The notes under the pieces are model-generated. The model saw only the letters and a program-made list of their open reading frames with translations. It ran no database searches and had not been told where the DNA came from. Both the position numbers and the translations under genes were made by a program. A stretch of DNA of 64,000 nt from Acidimicrobiia bacterium (GTDB taxonomy: Bacteria > Actinomycetota > Acidimicrobiia > Spongiisociales > UBA5794). Numbering within the stretch: the first letter of the stretch is position 1; every line of letters begins with the position of its first letter. Where the stretch lies: contig JASJDZ010000043.1 of the NCBI GenBank assembly GCA_030065575.1, positions 2,564-66,563 on the forward strand, written 5' to 3'. Below are positions 3,035 through 23,075 of this stretch, piece by piece.

Positions 3035-3942
3035 CCGGGAACACGGTCGGCCGCAGCCAACGCAGCACCAACCGCACCAGCCTCCGACCCAAGCAGTGCC
3101 GGACGGATGTCGATCAGATCGTGGTCGACCAAGGTCACGTGCTCGTAGACCGAACGCTTGATTGGATCGAAGATGGCGTCGCCCGCCGCAGCTATCCCAC
3201 CTCCGATGACCACCCGGTGCGGACCGAGGAAGGTGATGGCGTTGGCGATAGCGATCCCGAGGTACTTGCCTGCGGATTCCACTGCTGCTGCGCACCGTTC
3301 GTCTCCTTCGGCAACACCATCAAAGACCTCCTTGACGGTCCTCCGACCGGCGTTGGCGGCAAGCCGATCCGACCTCGCCATCGCCTCGGCGCAGCCGAAG
3401 TTGCCACATCCGCATTGCGGGCCGTCAGGGCAGACAGTCTGATGAGCAATCTCTCCCGCCCGACCGGTGGCTCCCCAGAACAGGTCCCCATTCATCATGA
3501 TGCCGCCACCGATACCTGTCCCCAGGGTCATGCAGACGACTATGTCGGCACCACGACCGGCCCCAATGCGACCCTCTGCAAGGGTGAATGCTCTGGCGTC
3601 GTTGATGAGGGTTGCAGGCATGGCGAGACCATTGTCGAGGATGCTCTGCAACGGCACTCCGCGCCACTGGCCAGGCAGGTTGGTGAATATCTCGACAACG
3701 CCGTCCGAGTCGAATAGACCTGGGGTCCCCATCCCTAGGGCGATGAAGGGGCCGTCCTGTTCGTGTCGCTCATTGAACACATCGATCATCCGGGTGAGCA
3801 CAGCTTCGTGTCCCGCATCACCTCGAGTGGGGACACTGCCGACCGATTCGATCACCGGTTCCGCTCCATCTGGAATCGTTAGCACCACCATCTTGGTGTT
3901 GGTCGCTCCGAGGTCCACCCCTAGGTACCTGCGGGTGCTCAT
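3031..3942 (-). CDS. ROK-family sugar kinase (glucokinase / N-acetylglucosamine kinase-like).
   Basis: It has an N-terminal LGVDLGATNTK ATP motif and the ROK zinc motif CGCGNFGCAE. The start ATG overlaps the gntR stop as ATGA. Confidence 0.85.
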   Translation of the reverse strand: MSTRRYLGVDLGATNTKMVVLTIPDGAEPVIESVGSVPTRGDAGHEAVLTRMIDVFNERHEQDGPFIALGMGTPGLFDSDGVVEIFTNLPGQWRGVPLQSILDNGLAMPATLINDARAFTLAEGRIGAGRGADIVVCMTLGTGIGGGIMMNGDLFWGATGRAGEIAHQTVCPDGPQCGCGNFGCAEAMARSDRLAANAGRRTVKEVFDGVAEGDERCAAAVESAGKYLGIAIANAITFLGPHRVVIGGGIAAAGDAIFDPIKRSVYEHVTLVDHDLIDIRPALLGSEAGAVGAALAAADRVPG

Positions 3943-4658
3943 CGTCCTCCCTCGTCCCGGTACATGGTCACGTCGAAGACGTAGCGGTCGGCGGCATAGC
4001 GTGTTTCAGTGTGCTCGAGCGGTCGTCCGTCCTGGTCATAGATGACGCGGCGCTCGCACAGCACCGGGCTGAGCTCATCTAGTTCGAGCAGGGTCTTCTC
4101 CTGAGGGGTGGCGGCCCTTGCTTGCACCTGGGCGGTGGCACGACTCGGCAGCAAGCCGATCGCCTCAAAGGCGACGTGCAGCGATCCGTCACCAAGCCCC
4201 GTCAGCACTCCGGCACAATGCGGAGCCAGCACCGCGCGTTCCATTGCCATCGGCGTGCCGTCCGCAAGGCGTAGTCGAACTAGCAGCCCGACCTTCGCTT
4301 CCTCCGCCATCTCGAGCGCATCGAGATCATCCTGGCTCGGCTCGATCAGTCCTGACTCGATGGTGATGGAAGTCGCCGTCAGACCGCGCCGCCGCATGCT
4401 CTCCGAAAACGACAGGGGCGAACCGAGCAGGCGGGGGATGGGGCGAGGACTGACGAAGGTTCCCTTGCCCTTGCGGCGATGAAGCAGGTGTTCGCGCTCG
4501 AGGGTCTGTACGGCGTGACGGGCGGTCATCCTGCTGACACCGAACAGCTCGCTGAGCTCAGTCTCCGAGGGCAGGATGTCTCCGGGCTGGAGTTCGGCAA
4601 TCCGGGCACGCAGGTGATCGGCGATCTCCTCGTAGCGGGGGCGGCGGGGAACGGTCAT
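3939..4658 (-). CDS. GntR/HutC-family transcriptional regulator (DasR/NagR-like, with a UTRA effector domain).
   Basis: It has an N-terminal wHTH (LPSETELSELFGVSRMTARHAVQTLEREHLL) and a C-terminal UTRA-like domain. It is the first gene of a two-gene minus-strand operon. Confidence 0.85.
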   Translation of the reverse strand: MTVPRRPRYEEIADHLRARIAELQPGDILPSETELSELFGVSRMTARHAVQTLEREHLLHRRKGKGTFVSPRPIPRLLGSPLSFSESMRRRGLTATSITIESGLIEPSQDDLDALEMAEEAKVGLLVRLRLADGTPMAMERAVLAPHCAGVLTGLGDGSLHVAFEAIGLLPSRATAQVQARAATPQEKTLLELDELSPVLCERRVIYDQDGRPLEHTETRYAADRYVFDVTMYRDEGGR

Positions 4659-4709
4659 CCTGGCGGTTGCGGCGGGTGACGGTTCGGCACGATGGCACCA
4701 TGCTAGCGT

Positions 4710-4725
4710 AGTTGTCTAGACAAGT
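4710..4725. promoter_or_regulatory. Candidate HutC-type operator (dre-like): AGTTGTCTAGACAAGT.
   Basis: It is a near-perfect 16-bp palindrome with a GTCTAGAC core. It sits in the divergent intergenic region between the gntR-ROK operon and the SIS gene. It resembles the DasR/NagR dre consensus ACTGGTCTAGACCACT. Confidence 0.5.
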
Positions 4726-4753
4726 GGTTTGACCCGAACTGCGAGGTGATCTG

Positions 4754-5554
4754 GTGACAGAGCATGGCTTCTCGGATGGCGTAGCCGGGCGATGGATGAC
4801 CGCAGCTCAGCAGACACTTGATCGCATCGAGCAGACCCAGATGGACGCGATCGGGGCCACCAGCAAGATGTGTGCCGATGCCATCGCAGCTGGGGGCATG
4901 GCGCATCTCTTTGGTACCGGCCACTCCCGGATCCCACTCGAAGAGATGTTCCCACGCTACGGCTCCTATCCCGGGTTTCACCCGATGGCCGAACTGTCGA
5001 TGACTTTCCACACCCAGGTAGCCGGCACGAACGGTCAGCGGCAGGCGATGTTCATTGAACGAGTTGAGGGTCTTGCTGAAGTCATCCTGCGCAACTTCGT
5101 GTTCAAGTCCTTGGACCCCATGATCGTATTTTCCTCGTCCGGGACAACAGCCGTACCCATCGAGATCGCCATTGGCGCTAGGGAGCGCGGTATGAAGGTG
5201 GTCGCAGTCACTGCGGTCGATCACTCCCAAGCGGGGGATCCATTGCCACGGACCGGGACCAGGTTGATGGATCACGCCGACGTCGTCATCGACATTTGCA
5301 TCCCGGTTGGTGATGCTGCCGTGTCCCTGACCGACCTTGACACGCCTGTCGGTCCGTTGTCAACGGTGGCGAACGCAGCGGTGGTCAACGAGATCAAAGT
5401 GCAGACCGCCGAGTTGCTGCGCCGCGCGGGCAAGCTCCCCTCTGTGATCACAAGCTCCTCAGTCGTTGGTGCTGATCGCTCGTCTGCGCTGTTCGAAGAC
5501 GCGTATAGGGACTACGCCCGACGCCTGGCCGCCGCCCTGGGAGGAACGGAGTGA
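4754..5554 (+). CDS. SIS (sugar isomerase) domain protein, UPF0309-like.
   Basis: It has a GTG start and a SIS-type phosphosugar-binding fold (FGTGHSRIP...VFSSSGTT). It is divergent from the gntR operon. Confidence 0.65.
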   Translation: MTEHGFSDGVAGRWMTAAQQTLDRIEQTQMDAIGATSKMCADAIAAGGMAHLFGTGHSRIPLEEMFPRYGSYPGFHPMAELSMTFHTQVAGTNGQRQAMFIERVEGLAEVILRNFVFKSLDPMIVFSSSGTTAVPIEIAIGARERGMKVVAVTAVDHSQAGDPLPRTGTRLMDHADVVIDICIPVGDAAVSLTDLDTPVGPLSTVANAAVVNEIKVQTAELLRRAGKLPSVITSSSVVGADRSSALFEDAYRDYARRLAAALGGTE

Positions 5555-5628
5555 CTCCAACTCGTCGTCCTATGTGTACGTGTAGGAGACGAGGTAGCGC
5601 GTTTCAATCGCCACGGGGCTTTGTTCTT

Positions 5629-5646
5629 GACACATACAAAAGTGTC
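5629..5646. promoter_or_regulatory. Inverted repeat GACACATACAAAAGTGTC upstream of the ROK regulator gene.
   Basis: It has 5-bp perfect arms (GACAC/GTGTC) around an 8-bp A-rich spacer, about 40 nt upstream of the ATG at 5686. It overlaps a TTGACA -35-like hexamer. Confidence 0.35.
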
Positions 5647-5685
5647 TGCTCAAATGGCGGAAGCATCGGGAGGAGAACGAGGCGA

Positions 5686-6852
5686 ATGGCGGTGAGTAGC
5701 CACACACCTGGGGGGCTACTCAAACTGATCCGTGACGGAGCGGCCGCAACTCGCGCTGATCTTGCCGGACTCACCGGGTTGGCCCGATCCACTGTTTCGC
5801 AAAGAGTCGATGCTCTGCTCACAGACCGCTTGCTAATCGAGGCGGGCGAGGCCCCGTCGAGCGGCGGGCGACCGCCGACGCTGCTGAAGTTCAATCAGGA
5901 TGCCGGAGTGGTGCTTGCCGCTGACCTTGGGGCTTCTCACTCTCGTCTTGCCGTCAGCAATCTCAGGGCCGAACCTCTCGCCACCTGTCGCGGACAGTTG
6001 CCTATCTCTGCCGGCCCGGAAGCGGTTCTGAGTTGGGCCGTCGATGAGTTCGCCAAACTCCTTGCGGACGCAGGCAAGGCTGCGAGCGATGTCAAAGCCA
6101 TTGGAGTTGGCTTGCCGGGCCCTGTCGAGCACTCAACCGGTAGAGCCATCTCGCCCCCGATAATGCCGGGATGGGACGGCTACGACGTAAAGGCAAGGCT
6201 GGCCGAGAGCTTCGACGTGCCGGTACTCGTCGACAACGACGTGAACATCATGGCCCTGGGGGAGTGGTGGGCCTCCAGCAACTCTGCGGATGACTTCCTG
6301 TACATCAAGGTTGGCACCGGTATCGGATCAGGATTGATCCTGGGTGGCCACCTCCATCGCGGGGCTGACGGTGCAGCCGGAGACATCGGCCACATCCAGG
6401 CCGGCGATCCCAGCGTCGTGTGCCGTTGCGGCAATCCGGGATGCCTCGAAGCTTCGAGCGGTGGCGGCGCCCTGGCGCAGGCACTGGCTAGCCAGGGATA
6501 CGACACAGCTGTGACAAGCGACGTGGTCCAACTGGTGAGGGCGGGCAATCCCGATGCGATACGCGCTGTTCAGGAAGCGGGCAGGGAGATCGGCAGTGTT
6601 TTGGCCACCATCGTGAATGTGCTCAACCCGCTCGACATCGTGATCGGGGGCGATCTGGCCGACACCGGAGCAGAGTTCCTAGCCCGCATTCGCGAAGTGG
6701 TCTATCGACGATCCACAGCGCTTTCGACGCGGCAGCTCTCTATCCGAGCGAGCGAACTCGGCGACAATGCCGGCATAACCGGTGCCGCGGCAATGGCTAT
6801 CGAGCATGCGTTCTCACCCAGCGCAGTGAACGAGCGGGCGGGTGTCGGATGA
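5686..6852 (+). CDS. ROK-family transcriptional repressor (NagC/XylR-like).
   Basis: It has an N-terminal wHTH (LAGLTGLARSTVSQRVDALL), a ROK sugar-kinase-like fold and a zinc motif CRCGNPGCLE. A GGGAGGAG RBS lies before the ATG at 5686, and the upstream in-frame extension is not coding-like. Confidence 0.8.
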   Translation: MAVSSHTPGGLLKLIRDGAAATRADLAGLTGLARSTVSQRVDALLTDRLLIEAGEAPSSGGRPPTLLKFNQDAGVVLAADLGASHSRLAVSNLRAEPLATCRGQLPISAGPEAVLSWAVDEFAKLLADAGKAASDVKAIGVGLPGPVEHSTGRAISPPIMPGWDGYDVKARLAESFDVPVLVDNDVNIMALGEWWASSNSADDFLYIKVGTGIGSGLILGGHLHRGADGAAGDIGHIQAGDPSVVCRCGNPGCLEASSGGGALAQALASQGYDTAVTSDVVQLVRAGNPDAIRAVQEAGREIGSVLATIVNVLNPLDIVIGGDLADTGAEFLARIREVVYRRSTALSTRQLSIRASELGDNAGITGAAAMAIEHAFSPSAVNERAGVG

Positions 6853-6956: not shown

Positions 6957-7997
6957 TTGTCGAAGAAGACAAAGTTTCCAGCTTGGCGGCTGCTGACAGT
7001 GCTCGCAGTGTTCGCGTTGATCGCTGCTGCGTGTGGCGGAGATGACGAGGGTGGCGATGACACGTTCACCCTGGGCGTATCCAACACACTCGTCGGCAAC
7101 GCGTGGCGCGAGCAGATGATTTGCGCCATCAAGGCAGAGGCGCTGGCCCGGGGCAACGTCGATGAGGTGGTTCTGCAGAATCGCAATACCGACGTAGCGG
7201 GCCAGATCGCCGACATCCAGACTCTGATCTCTCAGGGTGTGGATGCCATCATCATCAACCCGGCCGACCGTTCGGCCCTGGACGACGTAATTGCTGAGGC
7301 CGACGCGCAGGGAATCCCGGTCATATCCGTGGACGCCCCCGTGACCGCCCCCGAGGCGTACTTCGTGTCGAACAACCAGGTCGAGTACGGCGAGGTTGGT
7401 GCCCGGTGGCTCTTTGAGACGCTGGGTGGTGAAGGCAAGGTCGCGTACATGCGCGGTCTAGATGGTCACCCGGCAGATACCGATCGTGACACCGGCTGGG
7501 TCGCGGCGCTTGCCGAGTATCCCGGCATCGAGGTTGTCTACGAGAACTGGACCGGATGGGATCCCAGCGTTGGCGCCCAGCAGGCCCTGGAGATTCTCAC
7601 CACCATGGAGGTGGATGGAATCTGGACCTCCGGCATCGACTACACCGTGGTTGAGCAGTTCGCCGTTGCCGGTGTTGATTACGTACCGATCGTTGGTGCG
7701 GACAACAACGCCTTCATCGAGCAGCTGATGAACACCAGCGGGCTAGTTGGCGCCGGCGTGTCGAACCCGCCGTCTATTGGGGGAGTCGGTGCGGCTATTG
7801 CCCTTGACATCCTCGAAGGCAAGGACGTGAGCCAGGAGACGCTCCTGACTCCCGTCGTGCTCGACAGTATGGATGAGCTCGAAGGTGTGTACATCCCCGA
7901 CCTGACAGCAGGTTGGTCTTCGTACATGGTCATCGAGCCGTACGTCACATACTCCGACGCCCAGGCAGTCATCGACTGCAAGGGCCCTGGGGAGTAA
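6957..7997 (+). CDS. Sugar ABC transporter substrate-binding lipoprotein (PBP type I, ribose/xylose class).
   Basis: It has a TTG start after GGAGGAGGAG, a lipoprotein signal (LIAAACGG), and the periplasmic-binding fold typical of RbsB/XylF. Confidence 0.8.
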
Positions 7998-8060
7998 TGC
8001 AATGCGTGCCGGACTCCTCTCCAGAGGGGTCCGGCACCTCCACCTATTGAGGACCTGAAT

Positions 8061-9569
8061 GTGAGCGAGGAGTTCCTGCTCGCGGCGCGCGGCGTCGCCA
8101 AGCAATACGGACCGGTTGTGGCATTGCGCTCTGCGAACCTGTCCGTCGTACCGGGGGAGATCCATGCTCTGCTGGGCGCCAACGGTGCCGGCAAGAGCAC
8201 GCTCGTCAAGATCCTGTCATCTGTCATCCGAGCCGATGCCGGCGCGATCGATGTCCACGGCGTCGAAGCCGCTCTCCAGAAGCCCACAGATTCCCTCGCG
8301 GCTGGGATCGCCACCGTTTTTCAAGATCCAGCCCTGATCCGCGACCTCACGCTGGAACAGAACCTCCGCATCTCCCGTCTGACCAAGAGCGACGTCCTGC
8401 CCTGGCTGGAGAGAATGAACCTCGGCCACATCGACTTCGACTTGCAGGTTGCCGACGTCCCTCTCGCGGTGCTCCGCCTCCTCGACCTCGCCCGAGCACT
8501 TGCCCACGATCCGCAGCTACTCATGCTCGACGAGATCACCGCCGCATTGACTACCGACCAAGCCGACTACGTCTTTGAATTGATGCAGGAGTGGAAGGAT
8601 CGCGGCCGGTCCGTCCTCTTTATCTCCCACCGCCTGGGGGAGGTGCTTGCCTCCTGCGACCGGGCCACGATTCTGCGCAACGGCGCCGATGTTGCCCACC
8701 TCGATCTAGCCGGCGTCGACGAAGGCCAGCTCGTAACGGCAATGCTGGGCGAGGAGCTGGTCGAAGAGCTAGAAGAGGCCGGCACAACTCAGGAAACCGG
8801 GCCAGCCGTTGCCGCCGGTGCTCGGGACCGGAAAGAGCGACCCGTTGTTCTCGAGTTGAAGGATGTCCACTTGCGGGACAAGGTGAACGGTATCTCCTTC
8901 GAGCTCCGTCAGGGCGAGATCCTCGGCCTGACCGCACTGGAGGGTCAGGGTCAGAAGGAGTTGTTCCAGGCCCTGAGCGGCGATCACCGACCCAGTGCCG
9001 GGGAACTGCTGGTGAAGGGAGAGCCCCTGAGGGCGCGATCCCCATACGATGCCATCCGACGGGGAGTGGTCCTCGTACCGGCAGACCGCCAGCAGGCATT
9101 GCTACCGCAACGATCGGTCCGGGAGAACCTGGCCACACCTCTCTACAACAGTGCCGGGGGCTGGCTGGCTCTGGCCGGCGACGAGAAAGAGCGCGTCGAC
9201 GGCGCCGTTGCCCGGCTGGACATCGATGTCCGCGCCGGAAGCCAGGCACAGCGACTCTCGGGCGGGAATCAGCAGAAGGTGACGATCGGCCGCTGGCTTG
9301 CCGCCGGATTCGACACCCTGCTTTGTTTCGACCCCACCAGGGGCATTGACATCCAGACCAAGGCCCAGATTTACGATCTGCTCCGGGAGGTGGCCGCCGA
9401 CGGGGCCTCGGTCATCCTCTACACGAGTGAGTTGCGGGAGATCCAACTCGTGTGCGATCGGGTACTTGTGATGTACGCCGGCCGCATTGTCAACGAACAG
9501 GATGCTGCAACCGCAACCGAGGAATCCATGCTGAGCGCTGCCCACGGTCTGAAAGAGGTCCCGGCATGA
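8061..9569 (+). CDS. Sugar ABC transporter ATP-binding protein with duplicated ATPase domains.
   Basis: It has two Walker A motifs (GANGAGKST, and a degenerate one in the second half) and an LSGGNQQKV signature. At about 500 aa it resembles RbsA/XylG/MglA. Confidence 0.9.
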   Translation: MSEEFLLAARGVAKQYGPVVALRSANLSVVPGEIHALLGANGAGKSTLVKILSSVIRADAGAIDVHGVEAALQKPTDSLAAGIATVFQDPALIRDLTLEQNLRISRLTKSDVLPWLERMNLGHIDFDLQVADVPLAVLRLLDLARALAHDPQLLMLDEITAALTTDQADYVFELMQEWKDRGRSVLFISHRLGEVLASCDRATILRNGADVAHLDLAGVDEGQLVTAMLGEELVEELEEAGTTQETGPAVAAGARDRKERPVVLELKDVHLRDKVNGISFELRQGEILGLTALEGQGQKELFQALSGDHRPSAGELLVKGEPLRARSPYDAIRRGVVLVPADRQQALLPQRSVRENLATPLYNSAGGWLALAGDEKERVDGAVARLDIDVRAGSQAQRLSGGNQQKVTIGRWLAAGFDTLLCFDPTRGIDIQTKAQIYDLLREVAADGASVILYTSELREIQLVCDRVLVMYAGRIVNEQDAATATEESMLSAAHGLKEVPA

Positions 9570-10579
9570 CCTCCACTTCCCCGGATGCGCTGGTTGCCGG
9601 TACGCAGGCGCCCTGGCGTCGCTGGCTACGCCGTCATGGTTGGACATTGGGTGTCTGGCTCCTCCTGTTCCTGCTGATCGCCTATTACGCCACTCTCATT
9701 CCACGGTTCGGCGCCTTCCAGGTTGCGTCGATCGTCAACAACGCAACACCGCTCGTCTTCCTCGCCGTTGCCCAGGCCGTGATCGTTATCGCCGGGGGCA
9801 TCGATCTCGGCGTGGGCGGCATGCTTGTCCTGTCCAGCGTCACCGCAGCGCGGTTAATGGAGGGCCAACCCTTCGGCGTCACCATTGTTCTCGCTGTACT
9901 GATCCTTCTTGCCGCCGCGGTCATCAACTCCGGCGTTGGCTGGATCATCACCCGATCCAATGTGCCCGACATCGTTATCACTCTCGGATCTCTGTATGTG
10001 TTCCAGGGCTTGGCGCTCGCGGTCCTTCCCAACCCGGGGGGAGGGACGAGCGAGGGATTCCGCTGGCTGTTCACCGGATCTGACACCGGAATCGGCACCA
10101 ACCCGTGGCCGGCCGCTGTCATGATGACGGTAGCCGTGGCCGCGGTCGCCTGGTGGATGGGCAAGACCAGGAGTGGTCTGTCTCTGTACGCTGCTGGGAG
10201 CGATAGGACTGCCGCTTTCCTCTCAGGGATCAACGCCGATCGCGTCAAGATCATGGCCTATGCGGTCGGTGGCGCCTTCGCTGCCCTGGCCGGGTTGGCC
10301 AACACAGCAATCGCGGGTCGCGGCAACGCAACGACGGTGGGCGGCAATCTCACGCTCAACTCGGTCGCAGCGATCGTGCTCGGTGGTGTCGCCCTCACCG
10401 GCGGAATTGGGTCTGCCATTGCAGTAGTGCCCGCCGGGATCATCCTGTTCTTCCTCAATCCGATCCTCACCGCAATGGGAGTCGACCCGAGTAGTGCCCA
10501 GGTGATCCAGGGCGTTCTGATCGTGTTTGTGATGGCGGCGACGGGGATAATCGAATGGCGAAGGAGGAGGCAGGCATGA
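9566..10579 (+). CDS. Sugar ABC transporter permease.
   Basis: It is a polytopic membrane protein of the RbsC/AraH type. Its ATG overlaps the ATPase stop as ATGA. Confidence 0.8.
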   Translation: MTSTSPDALVAGTQAPWRRWLRRHGWTLGVWLLLFLLIAYYATLIPRFGAFQVASIVNNATPLVFLAVAQAVIVIAGGIDLGVGGMLVLSSVTAARLMEGQPFGVTIVLAVLILLAAAVINSGVGWIITRSNVPDIVITLGSLYVFQGLALAVLPNPGGGTSEGFRWLFTGSDTGIGTNPWPAAVMMTVAVAAVAWWMGKTRSGLSLYAAGSDRTAAFLSGINADRVKIMAYAVGGAFAALAGLANTAIAGRGNATTVGGNLTLNSVAAIVLGGVALTGGIGSAIAVVPAGIILFFLNPILTAMGVDPSSAQVIQGVLIVFVMAATGIIEWRRRRQA

Positions 10580-11577
10580 GCACGGATCTCATCCCTCTCT
10601 CCGAGGAAGAAGCCGCCGTCTCTGGTCGACAGAAGGCCGCCCGGTACCTGGTCAACCATCCCCACCTCGTACTCATCGGCGTCCTTGTCTTGCTGATCAT
10701 CCTGACCGGGCTCATCGAACCGAATTACCTGAGCATCAACGGCCTCCGCAATTCGGCGCTGTTTGCCGTTCCGATCGGCATACTCGCTGCGGGTCAGACG
10801 ATCCTGATGTTGACGGGCGGTATCGACCTGTCGGCGGCGATGATCGCCACCGGGGCCGCCTACATTGCCGCAAACCAATCGCCACAGGGTGCGGTGATCG
10901 CCATCCTGGGTGGTCTGCTCGTTGGTTTCCTGGCCGGTGCCGCCAACGGCATCGGGGTCGGGATCTTCCAGGTCAACCCTCTGATCATGACCCTCGCCAT
11001 GTCGGGCATCCTGCTGGGCCTATTCACTTCGTGGGCGCAGACAATCTTCTCGGGGTCAACCCGCATGGGTGACTTCATCAGGACGTTGGGAGGCGGATCG
11101 TTCTTCGGTCGGGCCATACCTTGGGCAGTGGTCGTCTGGGCGGTGCTTTCGGTGTTTGTTGTCTACATGCTGCGCCGGAGCGGTTTCGGACGGAACCTCT
11201 ATGCCCTCGGTGACAACCCTGCCGTCGCCCGCCTGTCCGGCACCCGGGCTTGGCAGGTCCTGATCATTGTGTACACGATGGCCGGCGTCTTCGCTGCCAT
11301 AGCCGGTCTCTTGCTCGGCGGTCGGGTCGGAGCCGTCGATCTCCAACTGGCCGGGGTGTTCCTACTTCCGTCGGTGGCGGCGGCGGTCATCGGCGGAACA
11401 TCCATCTTCGGCGGAATCGGCACCTACACCGGCACCATCCTCGGCGCCCTGATTCTCGGCGTGCTCCAATCGCTTCTCACGTTCCTCGGGGCAGGCCAGG
11501 CCGTGCAACAAATGCTGTACGGCAGCATCGTCATCGGTTTGTCCTGGCTCTACACCAGGATTTCCGCAGCACAGTAA
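10576..11577 (+). CDS. Sugar ABC transporter permease (second subunit).
   Basis: It is a polytopic membrane protein. Its ATG sits after AGGAGGAGG and overlaps the upstream stop as ATGA. Confidence 0.8.
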   Translation: MSTDLIPLSEEEAAVSGRQKAARYLVNHPHLVLIGVLVLLIILTGLIEPNYLSINGLRNSALFAVPIGILAAGQTILMLTGGIDLSAAMIATGAAYIAANQSPQGAVIAILGGLLVGFLAGAANGIGVGIFQVNPLIMTLAMSGILLGLFTSWAQTIFSGSTRMGDFIRTLGGGSFFGRAIPWAVVVWAVLSVFVVYMLRRSGFGRNLYALGDNPAVARLSGTRAWQVLIIVYTMAGVFAAIAGLLLGGRVGAVDLQLAGVFLLPSVAAAVIGGTSIFGGIGTYTGTILGALILGVLQSLLTFLGAGQAVQQMLYGSIVIGLSWLYTRISAAQ

Positions 11578-11581
11578 GGAG

Positions 11582-12745
11582 ATGGTCGACATGCATCTGA
11601 GCGAGATCAAAGCAGGTGTGGTCGGCGTCGGTTTCATTGGGGTTGCCCACGTTGAAGCGCTGCGTCGACTCGGAGTCGATGTGGTCGGTGTCGTGGGCTC
11701 AAGCCCGGAAAGAGCCAGGGCGAAGGCGGAGGCGGCGAATCTGCCGCGCGTCTACGACGGCATAGAGGCAATGGCCGCCGATCCCGAGATCGATGTCATC
11801 CACATCGCCAGTCCCAACTACGCACATGCCGGGCAAGCGCGGATAGTCCTCGACGCCGGCAAGCATGTTGTTTGTGAGAAGCCGCTGGCGCTGACGTCAG
11901 AGGAGACGGCGGATCTCGTGGCCAGGGCAGCAACCGCCGGGCTCGTCAACGCCGTTTGCTTCAACATCCGCTTCTATCCGAATTGCCATCAGGCCAGATC
12001 CCTCGTGGCATCCGGCGACATCGGCACTCCCCGGTTGATCAGCGGCAGCTACCTGCAGGACTGGTTGCTGCTCGAGACCGACTGGAACTGGCGCCTCGAG
12101 TCGGAGAAGGCTGGGGCGCTGCGTGCTGTTGCCGACATTGGCTCACACTGGCTCGACCTGGCCCGGTTCATCACCGGGGCGCATGTGACGGAAGTGATGG
12201 CTGATCTTCACACCTTCGTCAAGACTCGCAAGCATCCGGCCGGGCCCGTCGAGACCTTCGCCGTCACCGGTGACGATGAGGAACTGATCGAGGAGGCGAT
12301 GGAGTCCGACGACAGCGCCGGGGTCTTGCTGCGCTTTGACAACGGAGCGCGAGGTGTCGTCACGATCTCGCAAGTATCGGCTGGACGTAAGAACTCAGTC
12401 TCGATCGAAGTCGACGGCAGCGAATCCGCACTGTCCTGGTTCTCGGAGAACCCTGATCATCTCTGGATCGGCCACCGGGGCCGACCGAACGAGATCCTGC
12501 AGCGAGACCCTTCCCTGGCGAGCCCGGACGCCGCTCGTACCATCGGCTACCCGGGGGGACACGTCGAGGGCTATCCCGATACGTTCCGGGCGCTCTTCGC
12601 CGAAGTCTACGCCGATGTTGCCGCCGGGGGACCGGCCGTCGATCCTCGCTATCCGACATTCGCCGACGGCCACGATGCGCTCCTGGTGACTGAGGCAGTC
12701 GCCCGGAGCTCACAAGAACAACGTTGGATCCATATCGAAAGATGA
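11582..12745 (+). CDS. Gfo/Idh/MocA-family NAD(P)-dependent oxidoreductase. The start may instead be at 11591.
   Basis: It has an N-terminal Rossmann motif (GVVGVGFIGVAHVEAL) and a consensus EKP motif (VVCEKPLA). Confidence 0.85.
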   Translation: MVDMHLSEIKAGVVGVGFIGVAHVEALRRLGVDVVGVVGSSPERARAKAEAANLPRVYDGIEAMAADPEIDVIHIASPNYAHAGQARIVLDAGKHVVCEKPLALTSEETADLVARAATAGLVNAVCFNIRFYPNCHQARSLVASGDIGTPRLISGSYLQDWLLLETDWNWRLESEKAGALRAVADIGSHWLDLARFITGAHVTEVMADLHTFVKTRKHPAGPVETFAVTGDDEELIEEAMESDDSAGVLLRFDNGARGVVTISQVSAGRKNSVSIEVDGSESALSWFSENPDHLWIGHRGRPNEILQRDPSLASPDAARTIGYPGGHVEGYPDTFRALFAEVYADVAAGGPAVDPRYPTFADGHDALLVTEAVARSSQEQRWIHIER

Positions 12746-12755
12746 GGAGGAAAGC

Positions 12756-13670
12756 ATGAAGCTCGGTTTGCTCACCGCACCCTTCCCGGAGACGCCTCTC
12801 GACGAGGTCGCCGACTGGACCGCTGGCAATGGGTTCACCGCAATCGAGATCGCCTGCTGGCCGGCCACCAGCGGTGATACCCGTCGCTACGCCGGTACCA
12901 GCCATATCGATGTCGACGAGATCTCCGATACCGAGGCGTCAGACATAATGGGCGGGATGAAAGACCGGGGCCTGGAAGTGTCGGGTCTCGGCTACTACCC
13001 CAACCCGCTCCACCCCGATCAGGCGCACGCACGGATGGTTATTGACCATCTGAAGAAGGTGATCGTGGCCGCAGGCAAGATGGGTGTGCCCGTAGTCAAT
13101 ACCTTCGTTGGTGCCGACCGTGCACTGACTCAGGATGAGAACTGGGAAAAGGCGACCCGGGTGTGGCCGGAAATCGTGAATTGCGCCGCTGACAACGGTG
13201 TCAAGATCGCCATTGAGAACTGCCCGATGATCTTCTCCAAGGACGAGTGGCCGTCTGGTCACAACGTCGCCTACAACCCAAAGACATGGCGAAGGATGTT
13301 CGAGGAGTTCGGCGAGACGGTCGGCCTCAACTTCGACCCATCGCACCTGATCTGGCTGATGATCGACATTGAGCAAGCCATCCTGGAGTTCGGGGAACGG
13401 TTCTACTTCTTCCAGGCGAAAGACGTCATGATCGACTACGAAGGTCTCTACGAGAACGGAAGCCTGTCCTCAGGCATGGGCTGGCAGGTTCCGCGTCTTC
13501 CCGGGCTCGGCGACGTTGATTGGGCGATCGTGTTCCGTTCGCTCTACCGGGTCGGCTACGACGGGCCGATCATCATTGAACATGAGGATCGTGACTTCGA
13601 GCAGACAGACGACCTGGTCAAGCGCGGGTTCCTGCTCGCCCGCGACGTACTGGCGCCATACGTCCACTAG
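12756..13670 (+). CDS. Sugar phosphate isomerase/epimerase (xylose-isomerase-like TIM barrel).
   Basis: It has a TIM-barrel fold with metal-ligand His/Glu/Asp positions, similar to IolE/LgdB/DgpB-type enzymes. Confidence 0.85.
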   Translation: MKLGLLTAPFPETPLDEVADWTAGNGFTAIEIACWPATSGDTRRYAGTSHIDVDEISDTEASDIMGGMKDRGLEVSGLGYYPNPLHPDQAHARMVIDHLKKVIVAAGKMGVPVVNTFVGADRALTQDENWEKATRVWPEIVNCAADNGVKIAIENCPMIFSKDEWPSGHNVAYNPKTWRRMFEEFGETVGLNFDPSHLIWLMIDIEQAILEFGERFYFFQAKDVMIDYEGLYENGSLSSGMGWQVPRLPGLGDVDWAIVFRSLYRVGYDGPIIIEHEDRDFEQTDDLVKRGFLLARDVLAPYVH

Positions 13671-13687
13671 AGCCTAGAACTACAGCT

Positions 13688-15022
13688 TTGAGGAACTACC
13701 AGGAGCACGGCCGATATGACGTGGTGGTCGTCGGATCCGGTTCTGCCGGGTCGACGGCCGCCATTGCATCAGCGCGCGCAGGCGCAAGGACGTTACTGAT
13801 CGAGAAACTTCCGTTCCTCGGTGGCAATTCGACTGCGGTACTGGACACGTTCTACGGCTTCTACACACCGGGGGAGAGGGCCCGCAAGGTCGTGGCCGGG
13901 ATCGGTGACGATGTTGTCGCCGGACTCAAGGCGCTCGGGGAGGTGGTGGTGCGCCCCAACACCTATGGCGCCGGTACGGGGGTGACCTACCTGGCAGAGC
14001 ACTTGAAGGTTGTTTGGGAAGGCCTCGTCCTGACCGCAGGTGTGGATGTTCTCCTCCACGCCTTCGTTCAGGACGCAGGCGGAACCGACGGGCGCGTCAA
14101 CGAGCTCGTTGTTGCCACCAAGGCGGGCCTGATGCGTGTCGAGGCGACCACGGTCGTAGACGCTTCAGGCGATGCCGATGTCTGTCACCACGCAGGGCTC
14201 GGATACGAGCTCGCAGGATCGATCGCACCGGCACAGACGCTGACAACCACCTTCCGCATGGCCAACGTCAACATGGATAGGCGGAGGACGATCACCAAGG
14301 ACGACCTCCACGCCGTAATGGCTGAGGCCGCTGAGTCAGGCGACTACGACCTGCCGCGCCGGGAAGGCAGCGACCACATCACCCCGGTCGACGGGATGAT
14401 TGCCACCGTGATGACGCGAATCAATCACGTCGTGAAGGAAGATGACGGTACCGTGCGCAACGCTACCGACCCGAACCTCCTCACTGCTGCGGAGATCGAA
14501 GGCAGACGGCAAGCCCTCGAGTACGCAAGATTCCTGATCGATCGGGTACCCGGCTACGAGAACGCGGCAATCGTTGCCCTGTCCAGCCAGATCGGTCTCC
14601 GCGAGACGCGCCGCGTCTACGGCGACTACCGGCTGTCCCGAGCAGACGTTCTCGCCGCTCGGCAATTTGACGATCAGATCGGTCTGTGCGGAGCACCCAT
14701 CGAGGATCACCACGGTGGCGCCGGGACAGGCACGACCTGGGAGTACCTCCCCGAAGGCGAAGCAGTGGGCATCCCACTGCGAACCCTGATCGCGCGAGAT
14801 GGGCAGAACGTAATGATTGCGGGTCGTTGCTTCTCAGCCGAGCACGACGCACAGGCTTCTGTGCGCTCGATGGCTCAATGCATGGCAATGGGACAGGCGG
14901 CGGGAGTCGTCGCCGCGCTTGCCGCCGGGAGCGGCGGTGAGGTGAGATCGGTTCCAACTGCTGACGCTCAGACCGCACTTCGCAATGCCGGTGCGGTGCT
15001 GAGCATCGGGGAGGCCGGCTAG
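13688..15022 (+). CDS. FAD-dependent oxidoreductase.
   Basis: It has a TTG start and an N-terminal dinucleotide-binding motif (DVVVVGSGSAGSTAAIASA...LLIEK). At about 444 aa it resembles the FAD_oxidored / HI0933-like class. Confidence 0.75.
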   Translation: MRNYQEHGRYDVVVVGSGSAGSTAAIASARAGARTLLIEKLPFLGGNSTAVLDTFYGFYTPGERARKVVAGIGDDVVAGLKALGEVVVRPNTYGAGTGVTYLAEHLKVVWEGLVLTAGVDVLLHAFVQDAGGTDGRVNELVVATKAGLMRVEATTVVDASGDADVCHHAGLGYELAGSIAPAQTLTTTFRMANVNMDRRRTITKDDLHAVMAEAAESGDYDLPRREGSDHITPVDGMIATVMTRINHVVKEDDGTVRNATDPNLLTAAEIEGRRQALEYARFLIDRVPGYENAAIVALSSQIGLRETRRVYGDYRLSRADVLAARQFDDQIGLCGAPIEDHHGGAGTGTTWEYLPEGEAVGIPLRTLIARDGQNVMIAGRCFSAEHDAQASVRSMAQCMAMGQAAGVVAALAAGSGGEVRSVPTADAQTALRNAGAVLSIGEAG

Positions 15023-15988
15023 ATGGCGTTCGTGCGTACGGTTACCGGGGACGTGCCACCACACGAACTCGGTGTTACCTATGCACATGAGCACGTCGTG
15101 CTCGATGCGCCGATTGCGCAAGACCGCTTTCCTCACGCGTTTCTCGATGACGACGACGCAGCCTTATCAGAACTACGCGCTTGCGCCGAGGTAGGTGTGA
15201 AGGCGATGGCCGATGCGCTTCCGTGTGCGATCGGCCGGCACCCGGAACGCCTTGCAGAAATCAGCCGCGCCGTCGGCGTTCACATCATCGCCAGCACCGG
15301 CGCTCACACCAGCAAGTGGTATCCAGGGCTCTCCTGGGCCAACGAGCTACCGGCACCACAACTGACCGAGCTGTTTGTCGCCGATATCGAAATTGGGATC
15401 GACCGGTTCGACTACTGCGGGCCGGTAATCGAGCGGACACCCCATCGCGCAGGCCTCATCAAAGTTGGCACCCTTCAGGACGACCCCAACGAGCGTGACC
15501 GGCGAACCTTCGCCGCAGCGGCCGCGACCCACCGCCGCACCGGCGCACCGATCATTACTCACTGCGAGGAGGGAAGGGGTGGCCGGGAGCAGATTGAGCT
15601 CTTCGCTGAGTACGGCATCAGCCCAGATTGTGTAGTGCTTTCCCATACGGACAAGGTCCAAGACGTTGGCTACCACCTGGACCTGGTGGGGGCGGGGGCC
15701 TTCCTCGAGTTTGATCAAGCACTCCGCCATCCGATAGGTCCGACCAATCCGACCGTGCGTATCGTCACCGAGTTGGTGTCGTCTGGCTTCGGGTCCCAGG
15801 TGATGCTTGGCACCGACGGTGCTCGTCGCTCTCTGTTGACGGCATACGGGGGAGCGCCGGGATTGGCGGCGCTGGCAACCGGCGTGACGGAAGCACTCAA
15901 GAACGAGGGGGTCTCGGATGAGTCTCTCAATACCATCTTCGTCGATAACCCCGCTCGATTCTTCAGTTTCCGCGAGGTGGCAGAATGA
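15023..15988 (+). CDS. Phosphotriesterase-family (PTE/PHP) metal-dependent hydrolase, possibly a lactonase.
   Basis: It has the HxH metal motif (THEHVV) at the N-terminus of an amidohydrolase TIM barrel, and is about 321 aa. Confidence 0.8.
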   Translation: MAFVRTVTGDVPPHELGVTYAHEHVVLDAPIAQDRFPHAFLDDDDAALSELRACAEVGVKAMADALPCAIGRHPERLAEISRAVGVHIIASTGAHTSKWYPGLSWANELPAPQLTELFVADIEIGIDRFDYCGPVIERTPHRAGLIKVGTLQDDPNERDRRTFAAAAATHRRTGAPIITHCEEGRGGREQIELFAEYGISPDCVVLSHTDKVQDVGYHLDLVGAGAFLEFDQALRHPIGPTNPTVRIVTELVSSGFGSQVMLGTDGARRSLLTAYGGAPGLAALATGVTEALKNEGVSDESLNTIFVDNPARFFSFREVAE

Positions 15989-17037
15989 CGGATGTCGGCC
16001 GGCCATACCCGGACAGGGCTATCGCCGTCGGGAAACTCGCTCCCGGCATCGGCAATCTTGGGCTTCGCACTCAGGCTGTCAGGCGACCGGCGGAGGACGA
16101 AGCGGTGCTCGAGATCATTGCGACCGGCATCTGCGGTACCGATCTTCACATCGCAGACGACGAGTTCCCCTCCGAGCCGCCGGTGACGATGGGTCACGAG
16201 ATCACCGGAGAGGTTGCTGGGATCGGATCCGGCGTCGACTCCTCATGGTTGGGTGCGAGGGTTGTCTGCGAGACCTACTTCGCGACCTGCGGGGCGTGCA
16301 TCTACTGCCGCAACGGGAAGCCGAACCTATGTGCTGGGCGACGATCAATCGGCTCCCGTGTCGACGGCGGCTTTAGCCGCTGGCTGACCATCCCGGTTCG
16401 TAACCTATGGCGAGTGCCCGACCATGTCGGCAGGCACGGCGCAGCGCTAGCGGAACCACTCGCCTGTGTAGCGCGATGCATCTTCGATCCTCCGGTCATC
16501 AATCCCGGAGATAGCGTCCTTGTCGTCGGTCCCGGCGCTATGGGCCAGCTGACCGCCCAGTGCGCTCGGGCTGCGGGAGGAGTAGTCACGCTCGTGGGTC
16601 TGCAGCGTGACTCGGCGCGCCTCGAAGTGGCAGCGTCGATGGGTTTCAATGTGGTCGAGGCCGATGGCGACGTGACCGATCTCGGCGAGTTCGATGTCGT
16701 TGCCGAAGCATCCGGTAGCGAGGGTGGCGCTCGCACCGCACTCGACTCTGTCCGCAAGGGTGGGGCGTACATCCAGGTAGGCATCTTCGGCAAGCCAATC
16801 CAGGCGATGCTGGATGCATTCGTGTACGGGGAGCTGATTGTGCGGTCGGCGAACGCCAGCACCCCGAGTTCCTGGCGGAGAGCGATGCTGCTCCTCGATT
16901 CCGGCCTGATCGACCTTGATCGGCTGGTGAGCGACGTGTACGCACTCGAGGATTGGGAACAGGCATTCGCCGCCACCAGGGCTGGACAAGGGCTCAAAAT
17001 CGTTATCGATCCTCGTCTCCCGGCTCGCAACACCTGA
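15985..17037 (+). CDS. Zinc-dependent medium-chain alcohol/polyol dehydrogenase.
   Basis: It has a catalytic Zn motif (GHEITGEV), a structural Zn motif (CGACIYCRNGKPNLC) and a GPGAMG NAD motif. Its start overlaps the upstream stop. Confidence 0.85.
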   Translation: MTDVGRPYPDRAIAVGKLAPGIGNLGLRTQAVRRPAEDEAVLEIIATGICGTDLHIADDEFPSEPPVTMGHEITGEVAGIGSGVDSSWLGARVVCETYFATCGACIYCRNGKPNLCAGRRSIGSRVDGGFSRWLTIPVRNLWRVPDHVGRHGAALAEPLACVARCIFDPPVINPGDSVLVVGPGAMGQLTAQCARAAGGVVTLVGLQRDSARLEVAASMGFNVVEADGDVTDLGEFDVVAEASGSEGGARTALDSVRKGGAYIQVGIFGKPIQAMLDAFVYGELIVRSANASTPSSWRRAMLLLDSGLIDLDRLVSDVYALEDWEQAFAATRAGQGLKIVIDPRLPARNT

Positions 17038-17065
17038 CTCGACAATTGGCCGAAAGGAAGTTCGC

Positions 17066-17878
17066 ATGACTATCGGAGCAACACCCGAAGCAAGTTGGAG
17101 GACTGCCCTCATCGGCCCCAGCGCAGTCGTGACCGGCGTATCGAACGGCATCGGTAGATCGATCGCTGTTGCCCTGGCCGAGGCAGGGGCAAACGTGGCT
17201 GGGTGTTACGGGTCGGATCACCAAGGTGCGCAGCGGGTTCGCAACCAGATTGCCGCCACGGGCAGGGACTCTTACATCATCCAGGCTGACACGGGAGATC
17301 CCGCCACGGCTGAGACTCTGGCCACCGAAGCCGTTGATCGGTGGGGATCCCTCGACATCTGGGTCAACAATGCCGCTCGGCTCATGGTCAAGCCCGTTGT
17401 GGAAACCACCGACGAGGATTGGCACGGCCTGCTGGCGGCCAATCTTCACGGCTTCTTCTACGGCTCGCGGGCTGCAGCAACGATCATGTACGGCCAGAAG
17501 CGTGGCCGCATCATCAACATCACATCTGCGGCAGACGTTCTGGTAGTAGAGAATCTCGGTACCTACATCGCAGCCAAGGGCGGGATCATCGGGCTTACGA
17601 AGACCCTGGCTCTAGAAGCCGCGCGGCATCAGGTCACCGTGAACGCCGTATCCCCGGGGGCCATCGATACCCCTCTGAATCTGAAGGCGTACACACCAGA
17701 GGTGCGTCGTACCTACGAAGCACGGATCCCGCTCGGACGGATCGGCGCGGAGGATGAGATCGCCGACGTGGTCGCCTTCGTTGCGTCGAACGCCTCCCGC
17801 TACCTCACCGGCCAAGAGATCGTTGTTGACGGCGGACTGGTGATCAACGGCACTGTCGGTCACGCCCTGGACGAATGA
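17066..17878 (+). CDS. SDR-family oxidoreductase.
   Basis: It has a TGVSNGIGRS cofactor motif, an NNAA motif and a YIAAK catalytic dyad. Confidence 0.85.
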   Translation: MTIGATPEASWRTALIGPSAVVTGVSNGIGRSIAVALAEAGANVAGCYGSDHQGAQRVRNQIAATGRDSYIIQADTGDPATAETLATEAVDRWGSLDIWVNNAARLMVKPVVETTDEDWHGLLAANLHGFFYGSRAAATIMYGQKRGRIINITSAADVLVVENLGTYIAAKGGIIGLTKTLALEAARHQVTVNAVSPGAIDTPLNLKAYTPEVRRTYEARIPLGRIGAEDEIADVVAFVASNASRYLTGQEIVVDGGLVINGTVGHALDE

Positions 17879-18726
17879 TGGGCCGGGTCAATGCAATCGA
17901 GGTGCTGGTCGAAGGGCTCGACCACCCCGAGGGTGTCGCCTACGACCACCACTCGGGGATCCTGTACGCAGGGGGCGAAGCGGGCCAGATCTACGCAATT
18001 GATCCCGAGGAACGTACCGTCCGAGAGATCGCAAGAACTCCCGGATTCGTGCTCGGCCTGGCTGTCGATGGTCGCGGCCGTTTGGTCATCTGCGACTCGG
18101 TTGACGCAGCCATCTGGGTGCTCGAGGACGGCAGGCTACGGCGGCTCCTCGACCGCGCCGGAGATCGCAAGCTAATGCTGCCCAACTACCCGGCATTCGG
18201 CCCGGACGGAACCCTCTACTTCTCCGATTCGGGCAAATGGAAGGAGAACAACGGTGCGATGATCCGGGTGGCTCCCGACGGGGAGGCGACTGTGCTCGAC
18301 GCAACCCTCAATCGGTTCACCAACGGTTGTGCAGTGACCCCAGACGGTTCTGAACTCTGGGTGGTCCAGTCCTTGGGCCCGGTGGCCAAGATCAGCCTGA
18401 CCGGCGAGGGAACCGCGGAGGTTGCTGTCGAGCTCCCGGGCACGATCCCCGACGGAGTCGCATTCACCAAAGACGGGGGAGCGGTTCTCACTTGCTACCG
18501 CCCGGATCGTATCTACTACCTGGACCGGGATGGCAGGTTAGAGATCCTGGCTGAGGATCCGGAGGGAACCCTGATGGCTGCCCCGACCAACGTCTGCTTC
18601 CTGGGTGGCGATCGCACGACCTTGGTCTCGGCCAACCTGGGACGATGGCACTTGACGCTGCTGGAGACCGATCTGACCGGCGTCGTTCCCCATGCCCCGG
18701 AGACTTGGGCGGCTGACGTGTTATGA
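17875..18726 (+). CDS. SMP-30/gluconolactonase/LRE-family lactonase.
   Basis: It has six-bladed propeller signatures (EGVAYD, GRLVICD, PNYPAFGPDGTLYFSD, PDGVAF). Its start overlaps the upstream stop as ATGA. Confidence 0.8.
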   Translation: MMGRVNAIEVLVEGLDHPEGVAYDHHSGILYAGGEAGQIYAIDPEERTVREIARTPGFVLGLAVDGRGRLVICDSVDAAIWVLEDGRLRRLLDRAGDRKLMLPNYPAFGPDGTLYFSDSGKWKENNGAMIRVAPDGEATVLDATLNRFTNGCAVTPDGSELWVVQSLGPVAKISLTGEGTAEVAVELPGTIPDGVAFTKDGGAVLTCYRPDRIYYLDRDGRLEILAEDPEGTLMAAPTNVCFLGGDRTTLVSANLGRWHLTLLETDLTGVVPHAPETWAADVL

Positions 18727-21633: not shown

Positions 21634-21683
21634 GACTGTTCCTCCTGGTACTGGATGGACGGCGCCTCACGACGTGATGGCGA

Positions 21684-21695
21684 TTGTATATACAA
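21684..21695. promoter_or_regulatory. Perfect palindrome TTGTATATACAA upstream of the Gfo-nagB operon.
   Basis: It is a 12-bp perfect palindrome with the same TTGT...ACAA arms as the 4710 site, about 50 nt upstream of the start at 21633. Confidence 0.4.
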
Positions 21696-21702
21696 GTTAG
21701 CG

Positions 21703-21735
21703 GAAAGCCCGGCTGCTGCGTAATGCTGCAGCCGG
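21703..21735 (-). terminator. Possible intrinsic terminator downstream of the M50 protease gene.
   Basis: It is a GC-rich hairpin (CCCGGCTGC...GCAGCCGGG, 9-bp stem) followed on the minus strand by CUUUCC. The U-tract is weak. Confidence 0.3.
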
Positions 21736-21758
21736 GTCGATCAGCGTGACGTCGAGAG

Positions 21759-22883: not shown

Positions 22884-23075
22884 GGTTCACCTCCAGAAGG
22901 CGATCCGACTCATTAGAGAGGTTCGTTGCCGGAAGTCAGGACGGATGCTTCCAACCGGTTATGCGCATACGCGCATGTTTCCTGTCTAGTCCCGTTCCGC
23001 AAGTCCATCCGTCCCTTGTCGATCGAGCCTTGGGGATAGATGATGGAGGCAGGTCCCAACACCAGGGAGTGCCGA

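Follow-up and report, generated by a model that had tools for sequence, protein, structure and literature searches.

Predicted operators of a HutC-subfamily GntR regulator at two promoters of a sugar gene island in Acidimicrobiia

NagR (YvoA) of Bacillus subtilis combines a GntR winged helix-turn-helix (HTH) with a UTRA domain and recognizes a 16-bp palindrome with a GTCTAGAC-type core. In the NagR–DNA structure, Arg38 reads the G at position −5 of the operator, Arg48 reads the G at −4, and Gly69 of the wing contacts the G at −7 (PMC4333415). A dre element in the strict sense has the form TGGT...ACCA, and at least one of its half-sites carries G at −5 as well as at −4. HutC proteins with an Arg at the Arg38-equivalent position of the HTH favour G/C and disfavour A/T, the GT and AC of HutC operators stand 4 nt apart, and both operons of a divergon are usually served by one site near its centre (PMC4494728). 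DasR of Streptomyces coelicolor is an actinobacterial HutC repressor of global reach, with about 200 predicted sites, and its effectors are amino-sugar phosphates. In Streptococcus pneumoniae, the operator of the cellobiose-responsive regulator BguR, AAAAATGTCTAGACAAATTT, was mapped by promoter truncation and has the core ATGTCTAGACAA, and the operator predicted for GmuR of B. subtilis is tAAATGTaTAGACAttTa (PMC3585215). In Firmicutes, BguR and GmuR control the PTS-based use of beta-glucosides and glucomannan, and the signals they respond to derive from cellobiose.

Members of the Acidimicrobiia are plentiful in soil, sediment and water; most of them are uncultured, and to our knowledge essentially no transcription factor of this class has been characterised. 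The DNA analysed here, called the window, is a stretch of 64 kb from an Acidimicrobiia bacterium, and it carries two similar palindromes in the promoter regions of a sugar gene island (Table 1). The first, AGTTGTCTAGACAAGT (= agttgtctagacaagt) at 4710–4725, had been described as a near-perfect 16-bp palindrome in the original prediction, and indeed 14 of its 16 bases are self-complementary, the inner 12 bases (TTGTCTAGACAA, 4712–4723) forming a perfect palindrome. It lies in a 95-bp spacer (4659–4753) which is bounded by the ATG of gntR (4658, minus strand) and the GTG of the SIS gene (4754, plus strand), i.e., in the divergent promoter between the gntR–ROK kinase and SIS operons where it had been placed, which includes the promoter of the regulator's own gene. 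The second, TTGTATATACAA at 21684–21695, is a perfect palindrome, separated by 50 nt from the ATG of the downstream Gfo/Idh/MocA gene (Gfo2). The gene labels assigned earlier are correct at the Pfam level (GntR + UTRA, ROK, SIS_2, winged-helix ROK, Gfo/Idh/MocA and Glucosamine_iso).

Table 1. Positions of genes, predicted operators and candidate promoter elements in the window
Feature	Position	Strand	Basis or remark
ROK-family sugar kinase without HTH, 303 aa	3031–3942	−	Pfam ROK; coupled to gntR (ATGA overlap)
GntR/HutC regulator, 239 aa, proposed binder of both operators	3939–4658	−	Pfam GntR + UTRA
Candidate −10 TAGCAT of the gntR–ROK kinase promoter	4700–4705	−	TAGCA(T/C) kept 4–6 nt past the operator, towards gntR
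Candidate extended −10 TGcTAGCGT of the SIS-operon promoter	4701–4709	+	TGCTAGC element kept beside the operator in L001–L011
Operator 1 (predicted), AGTTGTCTAGACAAGT	4710–4725		PWM 28.4; TGT.TA.ACA the sole invariant columns of 17 orthologous spacers
UPF0309/SIS_2 phosphosugar enzyme (putative), NagS-like, 266 aa	4754–5554	+	30% identity to NagS; His53, Ser54 and Asp179 equivalents kept
ROK-family regulator with N-terminal winged helix, start codon uncertain	5551–6852	+	Pfam ROK + HTH_24
Monosaccharide-type ABC transporter: binding protein, fused ATPase, two permeases	6957–11577	+	Pfam Peripla_BP_4, ORFs, synteny
Rest of the island: Gfo/Idh/MocA, TIM-barrel, FAD oxidoreductase, PTE-family, Zn-ADH, SDR, SMP30 lactonase, DUF4432	11582–19712	+	
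NagB-family deaminase/isomerase-like protein, 233 aa from GTG at 20440	19739–20440	−	Pfam Glucosamine_iso
Gfo/Idh/MocA oxidoreductase (Gfo2), first gene of the site-2 operon	20437–21633	−	
Operator 2 (predicted), GATTGTATATACAAGT, perfect core 21684–21695	21682–21697		PWM 23.0; site absent from the matrix
Candidate −10 TAACTT of the Gfo2 promoter	21694–21699	−	shares the operator's first two bases; its ortholog counterpart is the extended −10 TGATAAGTT
GC-rich hairpin, likely terminator of the upstream M50/CBS protease gene	21708–21736	−	spacer fold −44.5 kcal/mol, z = −2.8

The regulator encoded beside site 1 consists of an N-terminal GntR winged HTH (PF00392, 7.2e-21, residues 9–69) and a C-terminal UTRA domain of the chorismate-lyase fold (PF07702, 4.2e-28, residues 91–226). 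Its best solved relatives, in full-length alignments, are NagR (2.7e-35, 37% identity) and DasR (2.4e-23, only 86 bits); it reaches no NCBIfam equivalog cut-off, and the window holds one HutC paralog only. Both sites contain the HutC core GT-N-TA-N-AC, as GTCTAGAC and GTATATAC, with 4 nt from GT to AC, which bears out the earlier assignment to HutC-type operators. The position of the site is kept across species in the promoters of the regulator's divergon and of its target genes, as for HutC operators. We therefore estimate, at a probability of roughly 0.8, that both palindromes are operators of this local HutC-subfamily GntR repressor; the assignment of the binder is supported by the presence of the site before the regulator's own gene in more than 20 genomes, by the HutC core rule and by covariation between the protein and its DNA. 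The operator motif can be given with high confidence as (T/A)TGT(C/A)TA(G/T)ACA(A/T).

Whether the two palindromes could simply be AT-rich intergenic sequence without function depends on which of their properties is counted. Perfect palindromes of 12 bp are no rarity (the window contains 22), and the loose signature GT-N-TA-N-AC alone is not enriched in the 64 kb (5 found, 3.5 expected), both of which are compatible with a chance origin. The more specific pattern TTGT-N4-ACAA has exactly two matches in 64 kb, which are the two sites (0.21 expected; 3 of 100 shuffles reached 2). The significance of the sites rests on a position weight matrix (PWM), and neither their palindromicity nor the loose signature carries it. 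This matrix has 20 columns, was symmetrised, and was built from 23 sites upstream of gntR genes, 22 of them from other genomes and one from the window. The scores are 28.4 for site 1 and 23.0 for site 2, while the next best position in the window reaches 8.7, so that the PWM scan for the motif suggested earlier leaves only these two sites above a score of 9. The number of positions scoring at least 23 that is expected by chance in 64 kb is 8.5e-4. In addition, CTAG occurs 61 times in the window, where base composition would predict 219 occurrences and a Markov model 107; this 3.6-fold depletion makes the GTCTAGAC core even rarer by chance. When the columns of the PWM were permuted, the metagenomic loci described below gave a mean of 1.3 matches vs. 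39 with the real matrix. However, the permuted maximum of 55 exceeds the real count, and for this reason the mean alone was relied on; our guess is that some permutations perhaps leave the core essentially unchanged. A search allowing two mismatches with TTGTNTANACAA returned extra sites at chance level only, and the PWM was used instead.

The comparative data leave an origin of the palindromes by chance with a negligible probability and effectively refute it. Searching species-representative genomes for the regulator protein gave 38 loci, mostly from Acidimicrobiia metagenome-assembled genomes (MAGs). In the loci whose regulator is 52–83% identical, the spacer upstream of gntR contains the palindrome in the forms TTGTCTAGACAA, TTGTCTATACAA, ATGTCTAGACAT and ATGTATATACAT. 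Alignment of 100 nt around the site from 17 genomes gave a mean column identity of 43%, and the only invariant columns are TGT.TA.ACA, i.e., the core is invariant inside otherwise diverged spacers. The genomes with the site upstream of the regulator's own gene comprise Acidimicrobiia, a Limnocylindrales MAG and, at a distance, a Gaiellaceae MAG, and the spacer between gntR and the divergent SIS gene carries it in L001–L013, L015, L016, L019–L022, L025 and L045. The gene order SDR, ROK kinase, gntR, divergent SIS, ROK regulator and ABC transporter is kept in L001–L020 and L025. Three loci (L014, L017 and L018) show a differing architecture with overlapping TCTAGA units.

The promoter of Gfo2 was examined in a metagenome scan with the Gfo protein, which yielded 80 loci at 74–90% identity, 76 of them with enough upstream sequence. 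A PWM match of at least 12 was found before 38 of these 76 independent Gfo2 orthologs, centred 23–61 nt before the start codon. The sole other match in the 478 kb of metagenomic loci lies itself in a spacer between gntR and SIS (L045), which is again difficult to reconcile with chance. The other half of the Gfo2 orthologs show no recognisable site, which weighs against the operator reading; many of these are internal to an operon or have degenerate versions of the site, and others have a different sequence. In the Gaiellaceae MAG (L028), the SIS gene and the Gfo ortholog directly flank the site, which is 4.7 kb away from the regulator. The palindrome upstream of the Gfo–nagB pair, which had been presented as a second perfect palindrome with identical arms, is thus a true sibling of site 1. 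In relatives, the site also accompanies genes that have moved: L022, where the ROK kinase gene is detached, has a separate site 47 nt before it, and a DeoC-like aldolase gene is preceded by a site in L012, L013, L021, L025 and L026. Neither this aldolase nor the MetE-like gene of distant relatives was found in the window by tblastn. Outside such promoter regions, no PWM match of at least 13 was found in 393 kb and 478 kb of related DNA. The sites exist, are specific and conserved, and are always linked to this regulator clade and these genes, and the residues of the protein that govern DNA specificity and phosphate binding are as expected. Taken together, the two sites of the window support the small HutC regulon that had been proposed, which joins the ROK kinase, SIS and NagB-like genes.

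The question of which HutC regulator type the sites belong to can be addressed by the base at −5 and the residue that reads it. Thr33, Arg43 and Gly64 of the regulator occupy the positions of NagR Arg38, Arg48 and Gly69, respectively. Among 27 clade members, the Arg38 position is Ala in 16, Thr in 8, Ser in 2 and Leu in 1, and never Arg, whereas the equivalents Arg43 and Gly64 are invariant. On the DNA side, both half-sites in the window are TTGT/ACAA rather than TGGT/ACCA, and the base at −5 is T in all 23 orthologous sites. The locus thus offers a clean natural case of the GntR Arg-to-G rule, in which the loss of Arg at HTH position 28 goes together with a G-to-T change at −5 in every site.

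This covariation also bears on the possibility that a global DasR/NagR ortholog, encoded elsewhere in the genome, binds the palindromes as true dre elements, with the local GntR protein a bystander or directed at another target. The 16-mer matches the DasR consensus A(G/C)TGGTCTAGACCA(G/C)T at 14 of 16 positions, the flanking A(G/C)T...A(G/C)T included, and only 64 kb of the genome is covered by the window. However, both mismatches are the symmetric G positions at −5 that Arg38-type regulators read, the T at −5 is invariant in orthologous sites, more than 20 genomes have the site in front of the local regulator's gene, and that regulator has the non-Arg residue expected for a T at this position. 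A global DasR/NagR ortholog as the binder is accordingly quite improbable. It may also be that a second HutC regulator of the same specificity is encoded beyond the 64 kb covered. In contrast to the global reach of DasR, the two sites per 64 kb here describe a compact local regulon. The original prediction of a match to DasR/NagR dre elements thus holds for the HutC core and spacing and for the 14/16 agreement with the DasR consensus, but not for the half-sites, which are TGT instead of TGGT, nor for the regulator, which lacks the Arg38 equivalent that reads G−5. Because of these two differences, we classify the sites as HutC operators which would work like dre, in a regulator–operator pair of the NagR/DasR/BguR type, and not as strict DasR/NagR dre. 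BguR and GmuR have an operator core identical to that of the sites here, and BguR is likewise encoded divergently from its target operon. Unlike NagR, the regulator here is co-transcribed with a ROK kinase gene and is divergent from a UPF0309 SIS gene; a NagB-family gene is among the predicted targets here, as it is among those of NagR.

The operon beside site 1 also encodes a winged-helix ROK-family regulator, and ROK repressors also bind AT-rich palindromes, so that this protein, and not the HutC protein, could be imagined as the binder. However, the site is kept in L011, L021, L022 and L028, which have no ROK regulator gene within reach, GT-N-TA-N-AC is the HutC/FadR signature, and the same core has been mapped experimentally as the operator of the GntR regulator BguR. 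Binding by the ROK regulator is therefore very unlikely. The layered HutC/ROK control that had been suggested for this locus is structurally plausible in so far as the ROK regulator gene lies within the operon that the HutC protein would control, but the absence of this gene from the same four relatives makes the ROK layer an accessory feature. No second conserved operator for the ROK regulator was found in the spacer between its gene and the binding-protein gene in 11 loci.

From the sequence we infer binding by the local HutC regulator, repression rather than activation, the positions of the promoters and the nature of the inducer, and the following mechanism can be proposed. A repressor dimer would bind each 16-bp site, with Arg43 of each monomer reading the G of a TGT half-site and the wing (Gly64) entering the minor groove as in NagR, while Thr33 would stand in for the Arg that would require a second G. 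Site 1 would cover the start region of the SIS–ROK regulator–ABC transporter operon and the −35/spacer region of the gntR–ROK kinase promoter. Since the site spans both promoter regions, one bound dimer would shut both divergent promoters, including the regulator's own (autoregulation). Site 2, at the other end of the island, would overlap the −10 element and start region of the Gfo2–NagB-like operon. Basal expression of the co-transcribed ROK kinase would turn an imported monosaccharide into a sugar 6-phosphate, which would enter the UTRA pocket, displace the DNA-binding domains and thereby de-repress both operons.

The promoter positions deserve comment. Consensus scans for sigma-70 promoters and terminators returned nothing in either spacer; for the promoters this is expected in Actinobacteria and was not counted as support. 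The proposed promoters were therefore placed by eye on conserved TGnTAnnnT-like elements. The candidate extended −10 of the SIS operon ends 2 nt short of the 12-bp core and touches the 16-mer directly, so the transcription start of this operon would probably lie within operator 1. In the opposite direction, operator 1 would be located at roughly −30 to −19 of the gntR–ROK kinase promoter, over its −35/spacer region. In the Gfo orthologs, the operator starts inside a kept extended −10 element, TGATAAG-TTGTATAGACAA, the window counterpart of which is gcTAACTTGTATATACAA; the same −10 element is also present in loci without the operator. As operator 2 begins in this conserved −10, a bound dimer would cover the −10 element and the start site. 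The hairpin upstream of it probably ends the preceding M50 protease gene, and Gfo2 should thus have its own promoter. Neither spacer matched an Rfam family at E ≤ 1, and a riboswitch or sRNA reading was dropped for this reason.

These placements also argue about the direction of control. Some HutC members are reported to be dual regulators, e.g., NagR of B. thuringiensis (PMC6141813), and as the promoter positions here are predicted ones, the local HutC protein might bind the sites as an activator or dual regulator. Against this, site 2 and its orthologs begin in a conserved −10 hexamer and cover the expected start, and site 1 abuts the conserved TGCTAGC element, both placements being typical of steric repression. 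Activation or dual control is thus unlikely, and repression is the mode of action retained here. The predicted switch is one of the ordinary HutC kind, newly seen in the little-studied Acidimicrobiia, and it leaves the knowledge of how HutC repressors work unchanged.

The genes under the two predicted operators tie a UPF0309 SIS protein, a NagB-family protein, a ROK kinase, a C3-type Gfo dehydrogenase and, in relatives, a DeoC-like aldolase to one motif and one probable regulator, and this conserved gene set provides a practical handle on the pathway and substrate of an uncharacterised sugar island. The ROK kinase matches the NCBIfam ROK glucokinase subfamily below its cut-off. In the site-2 operon, the Gfo2 stop codon overlaps the GTG of the NagB-like gene (GTGA, 20440–20437), indicating translational coupling. 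All 12 PDB matches of the NagB-like protein are GlcN-6-P deaminases and its LDE and GNGHIGxNEPG motifs are kept, while every NCBIfam match is below cut-off. The solved relatives of both Gfo dehydrogenases of the island are sugar C3 dehydrogenases, e.g., levoglucosan dehydrogenase and DgpA. The Gfo2–NagB-like pair is conserved and convergent with the Gfo1, TIM-barrel, FAD oxidoreductase and PTE genes, and is therefore assigned to the same island; the genes listed in Table 1 as the rest of the island co-occur with Gfo2 and the NagB-like gene in metagenomic loci.

The original prediction had further pointed to regulators of amino-sugar genes, a reading to which the gene and protein sequences give even odds. 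The NagB catalytic motif, the NagS-like SIS protein, and NagR as the nearest solved relative with a NagR-like pocket in the regulator make it plausible. The SIS protein belongs to the same UPF0309/SIS_2 family as NagS (SCO4393), the GlcNAc-6P dehydratase of Streptomyces (1.1e-30), and keeps the three catalytic residues given in Table 1. However, it is only 30% identical to NagS, compared with at least 58.7% within Streptomycetaceae, and NagS homologs at 26–36% identity were tested and showed no GlcNAc-6P dehydration (PMC12680351). Moreover, nagS of Streptomycetaceae is paired with dmdR1, whereas the SIS gene here is paired with a HutC regulator. The Gfo, TIM-barrel, FAD oxidoreductase, PTE, lactonase and DUF4432 proteins fit no known amino-sugar route, and neither nagA nor a PTS gene is among the annotated island genes. 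The operator does not decide the matter, as the same core serves beta-glucoside regulation by BguR and GmuR; the motif thus says HutC and not amino sugar, and leaves the amino-sugar reading unproven.

A tentative and less probable extension is that Acidimicrobiia and neighbouring lineages break down an amino sugar, or a related monosaccharide, by a so far undescribed route which the operator pair would mark. A literature search on UPF0309, DUF4432 and levoglucosan dehydrogenase yielded nothing of use for the pathway. If such a route exists, the sugar 6-phosphate made by the ROK kinase would both act as inducer of the HutC protein and serve a UPF0309 SIS enzyme of new specificity as substrate, and the C3-type Gfo dehydrogenase and the NagB-family enzyme would complete the conversion.

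The effector pocket of the regulator provides some indication of the inducer. The phosphate ligands of NagR, Arg133, Arg135 and Ser165, are kept in all 27 clade members, with Thr90 being Ser or Thr, and so are its sugar ligands Ser88, Phe89, Glu145, Arg211, Glu222 and Tyr228 (27/27). The retention of these NagR-type ligands makes induction by a sugar phosphate likely, for which the ROK kinase co-transcribed with gntR would be the obvious source. However, three differences from NagR are invariant in the clade, namely Tyr167 to His161, Ile209 to Glu202 and Ala224 to Thr217, two of which adjoin the acetyl group of GlcNAc-6-P in NagR, so that the pocket differs near the acetyl group and at the stacking Tyr. 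These changes suggest a ligand that is related to, but different from, that of NagR; an amino-sugar 6-phosphate such as GlcN-6-P, but not GlcNAc-6-P, would be our guess. Should the proposed route be real, His161, Glu202 and Thr217 would define a new effector specificity among HutC regulators.

The putative effector pocket of the GntR/HutC regulator, the proposed binder of both palindromic operators, contains His161, Glu202 and Thr217, and these three residues are common to all members of its HutC clade (27/27). The Bacillus subtilis HutC repressor NagR, in contrast, carries Tyr167, Ile209 and Ala224 at these positions; its phosphate and sugar ligands are identical to those of the clade. Judged from sequence, His161/Glu202/Thr217 is a predicted effector signature specific to this HutC clade.

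Operator layout varies among the related loci (L numbers) collected from other genomes by a scan with the regulator protein. In the gntR-upstream spacers of L014, L017 and L018, whose regulators are orthologs with 55–61% identity, overlapping TGTCTAGA units with a period of 8 bp, e.g., GTCTAGTTGTCTAGATGTCTAGAGGTGTAG, replace the single palindrome, which is a different predicted operator layout within the same regulator clade. In the divergent spacer between gntR and the SIS gene of L006 and L009, two full sites adjoin, 16 bp centre to centre, suggesting that two dimers bind cooperatively in these genomes. In more distant relatives (L012, L013, L025, L021 and L026), the palindromic operator also occurs upstream of a DeoC/LacD-family aldolase gene, and in the first three it lies within a divergon of the aldolase versus a cobalamin-independent methionine-synthase-like (Meth_synt_2) gene. 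Both genes are absent from the 64-kb window.

Coordinates of the features (window unless a locus is named)
Feature	Position	Content
Regulator	3939-4658 (-)	GntR/HutC
Island genes	11582-19712; 19739-21633	two Gfo/Idh/MocA dehydrogenases among them
Overlapping array	L017:2125-2160	
Paired sites	L006:5907-5942; L009:5931-5966	
Operator and aldolase	L012:7622-9425; L013:7615-9415; L025:7594-9402; L021:7831-8617; L026:836-1600	
Start region of ROK regulator ORF	5551-5686	candidate GTG start
Hairpin	21708-21736	GC-rich, then CUUUCC
Left-end ORFs	13-1874	ECF-type sigma-factor-like ORF (by eye), then DUF2268 protein (Pfam)
Neighbour ORFs	23040-26513	

Both dehydrogenases in the sugar-metabolism island of the window have sugar C3 dehydrogenases as their solved relatives (levoglucosan dehydrogenase, DgpA). 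The island also encodes a xylose-isomerase-like TIM barrel, a PF12831 FAD oxidoreductase, a phosphotriesterase-family protein, a Zn-ADH, an SDR, an SMP30 lactonase and DUF4432, and this gene set is kept together across many metagenomic contigs.

The candidate start of the ROK regulator overlaps the SIS stop codon and would add ~45 residues ahead of the winged helix; most of this extension is alignable in L001. The hairpin directly follows the M50/CBS-domain protease gene and is likely an intrinsic terminator whose U tract is weak. For the unrelated neighbours of the island, ORF translations were inspected by eye. One left-end ORF looks like an ECF-type sigma factor, and the ORFs at 23040-26513 include some that look like 2-oxoacid:ferredoxin oxidoreductase subunits, one with an apparently NADPH-dependent and 4Fe–4S-like part.
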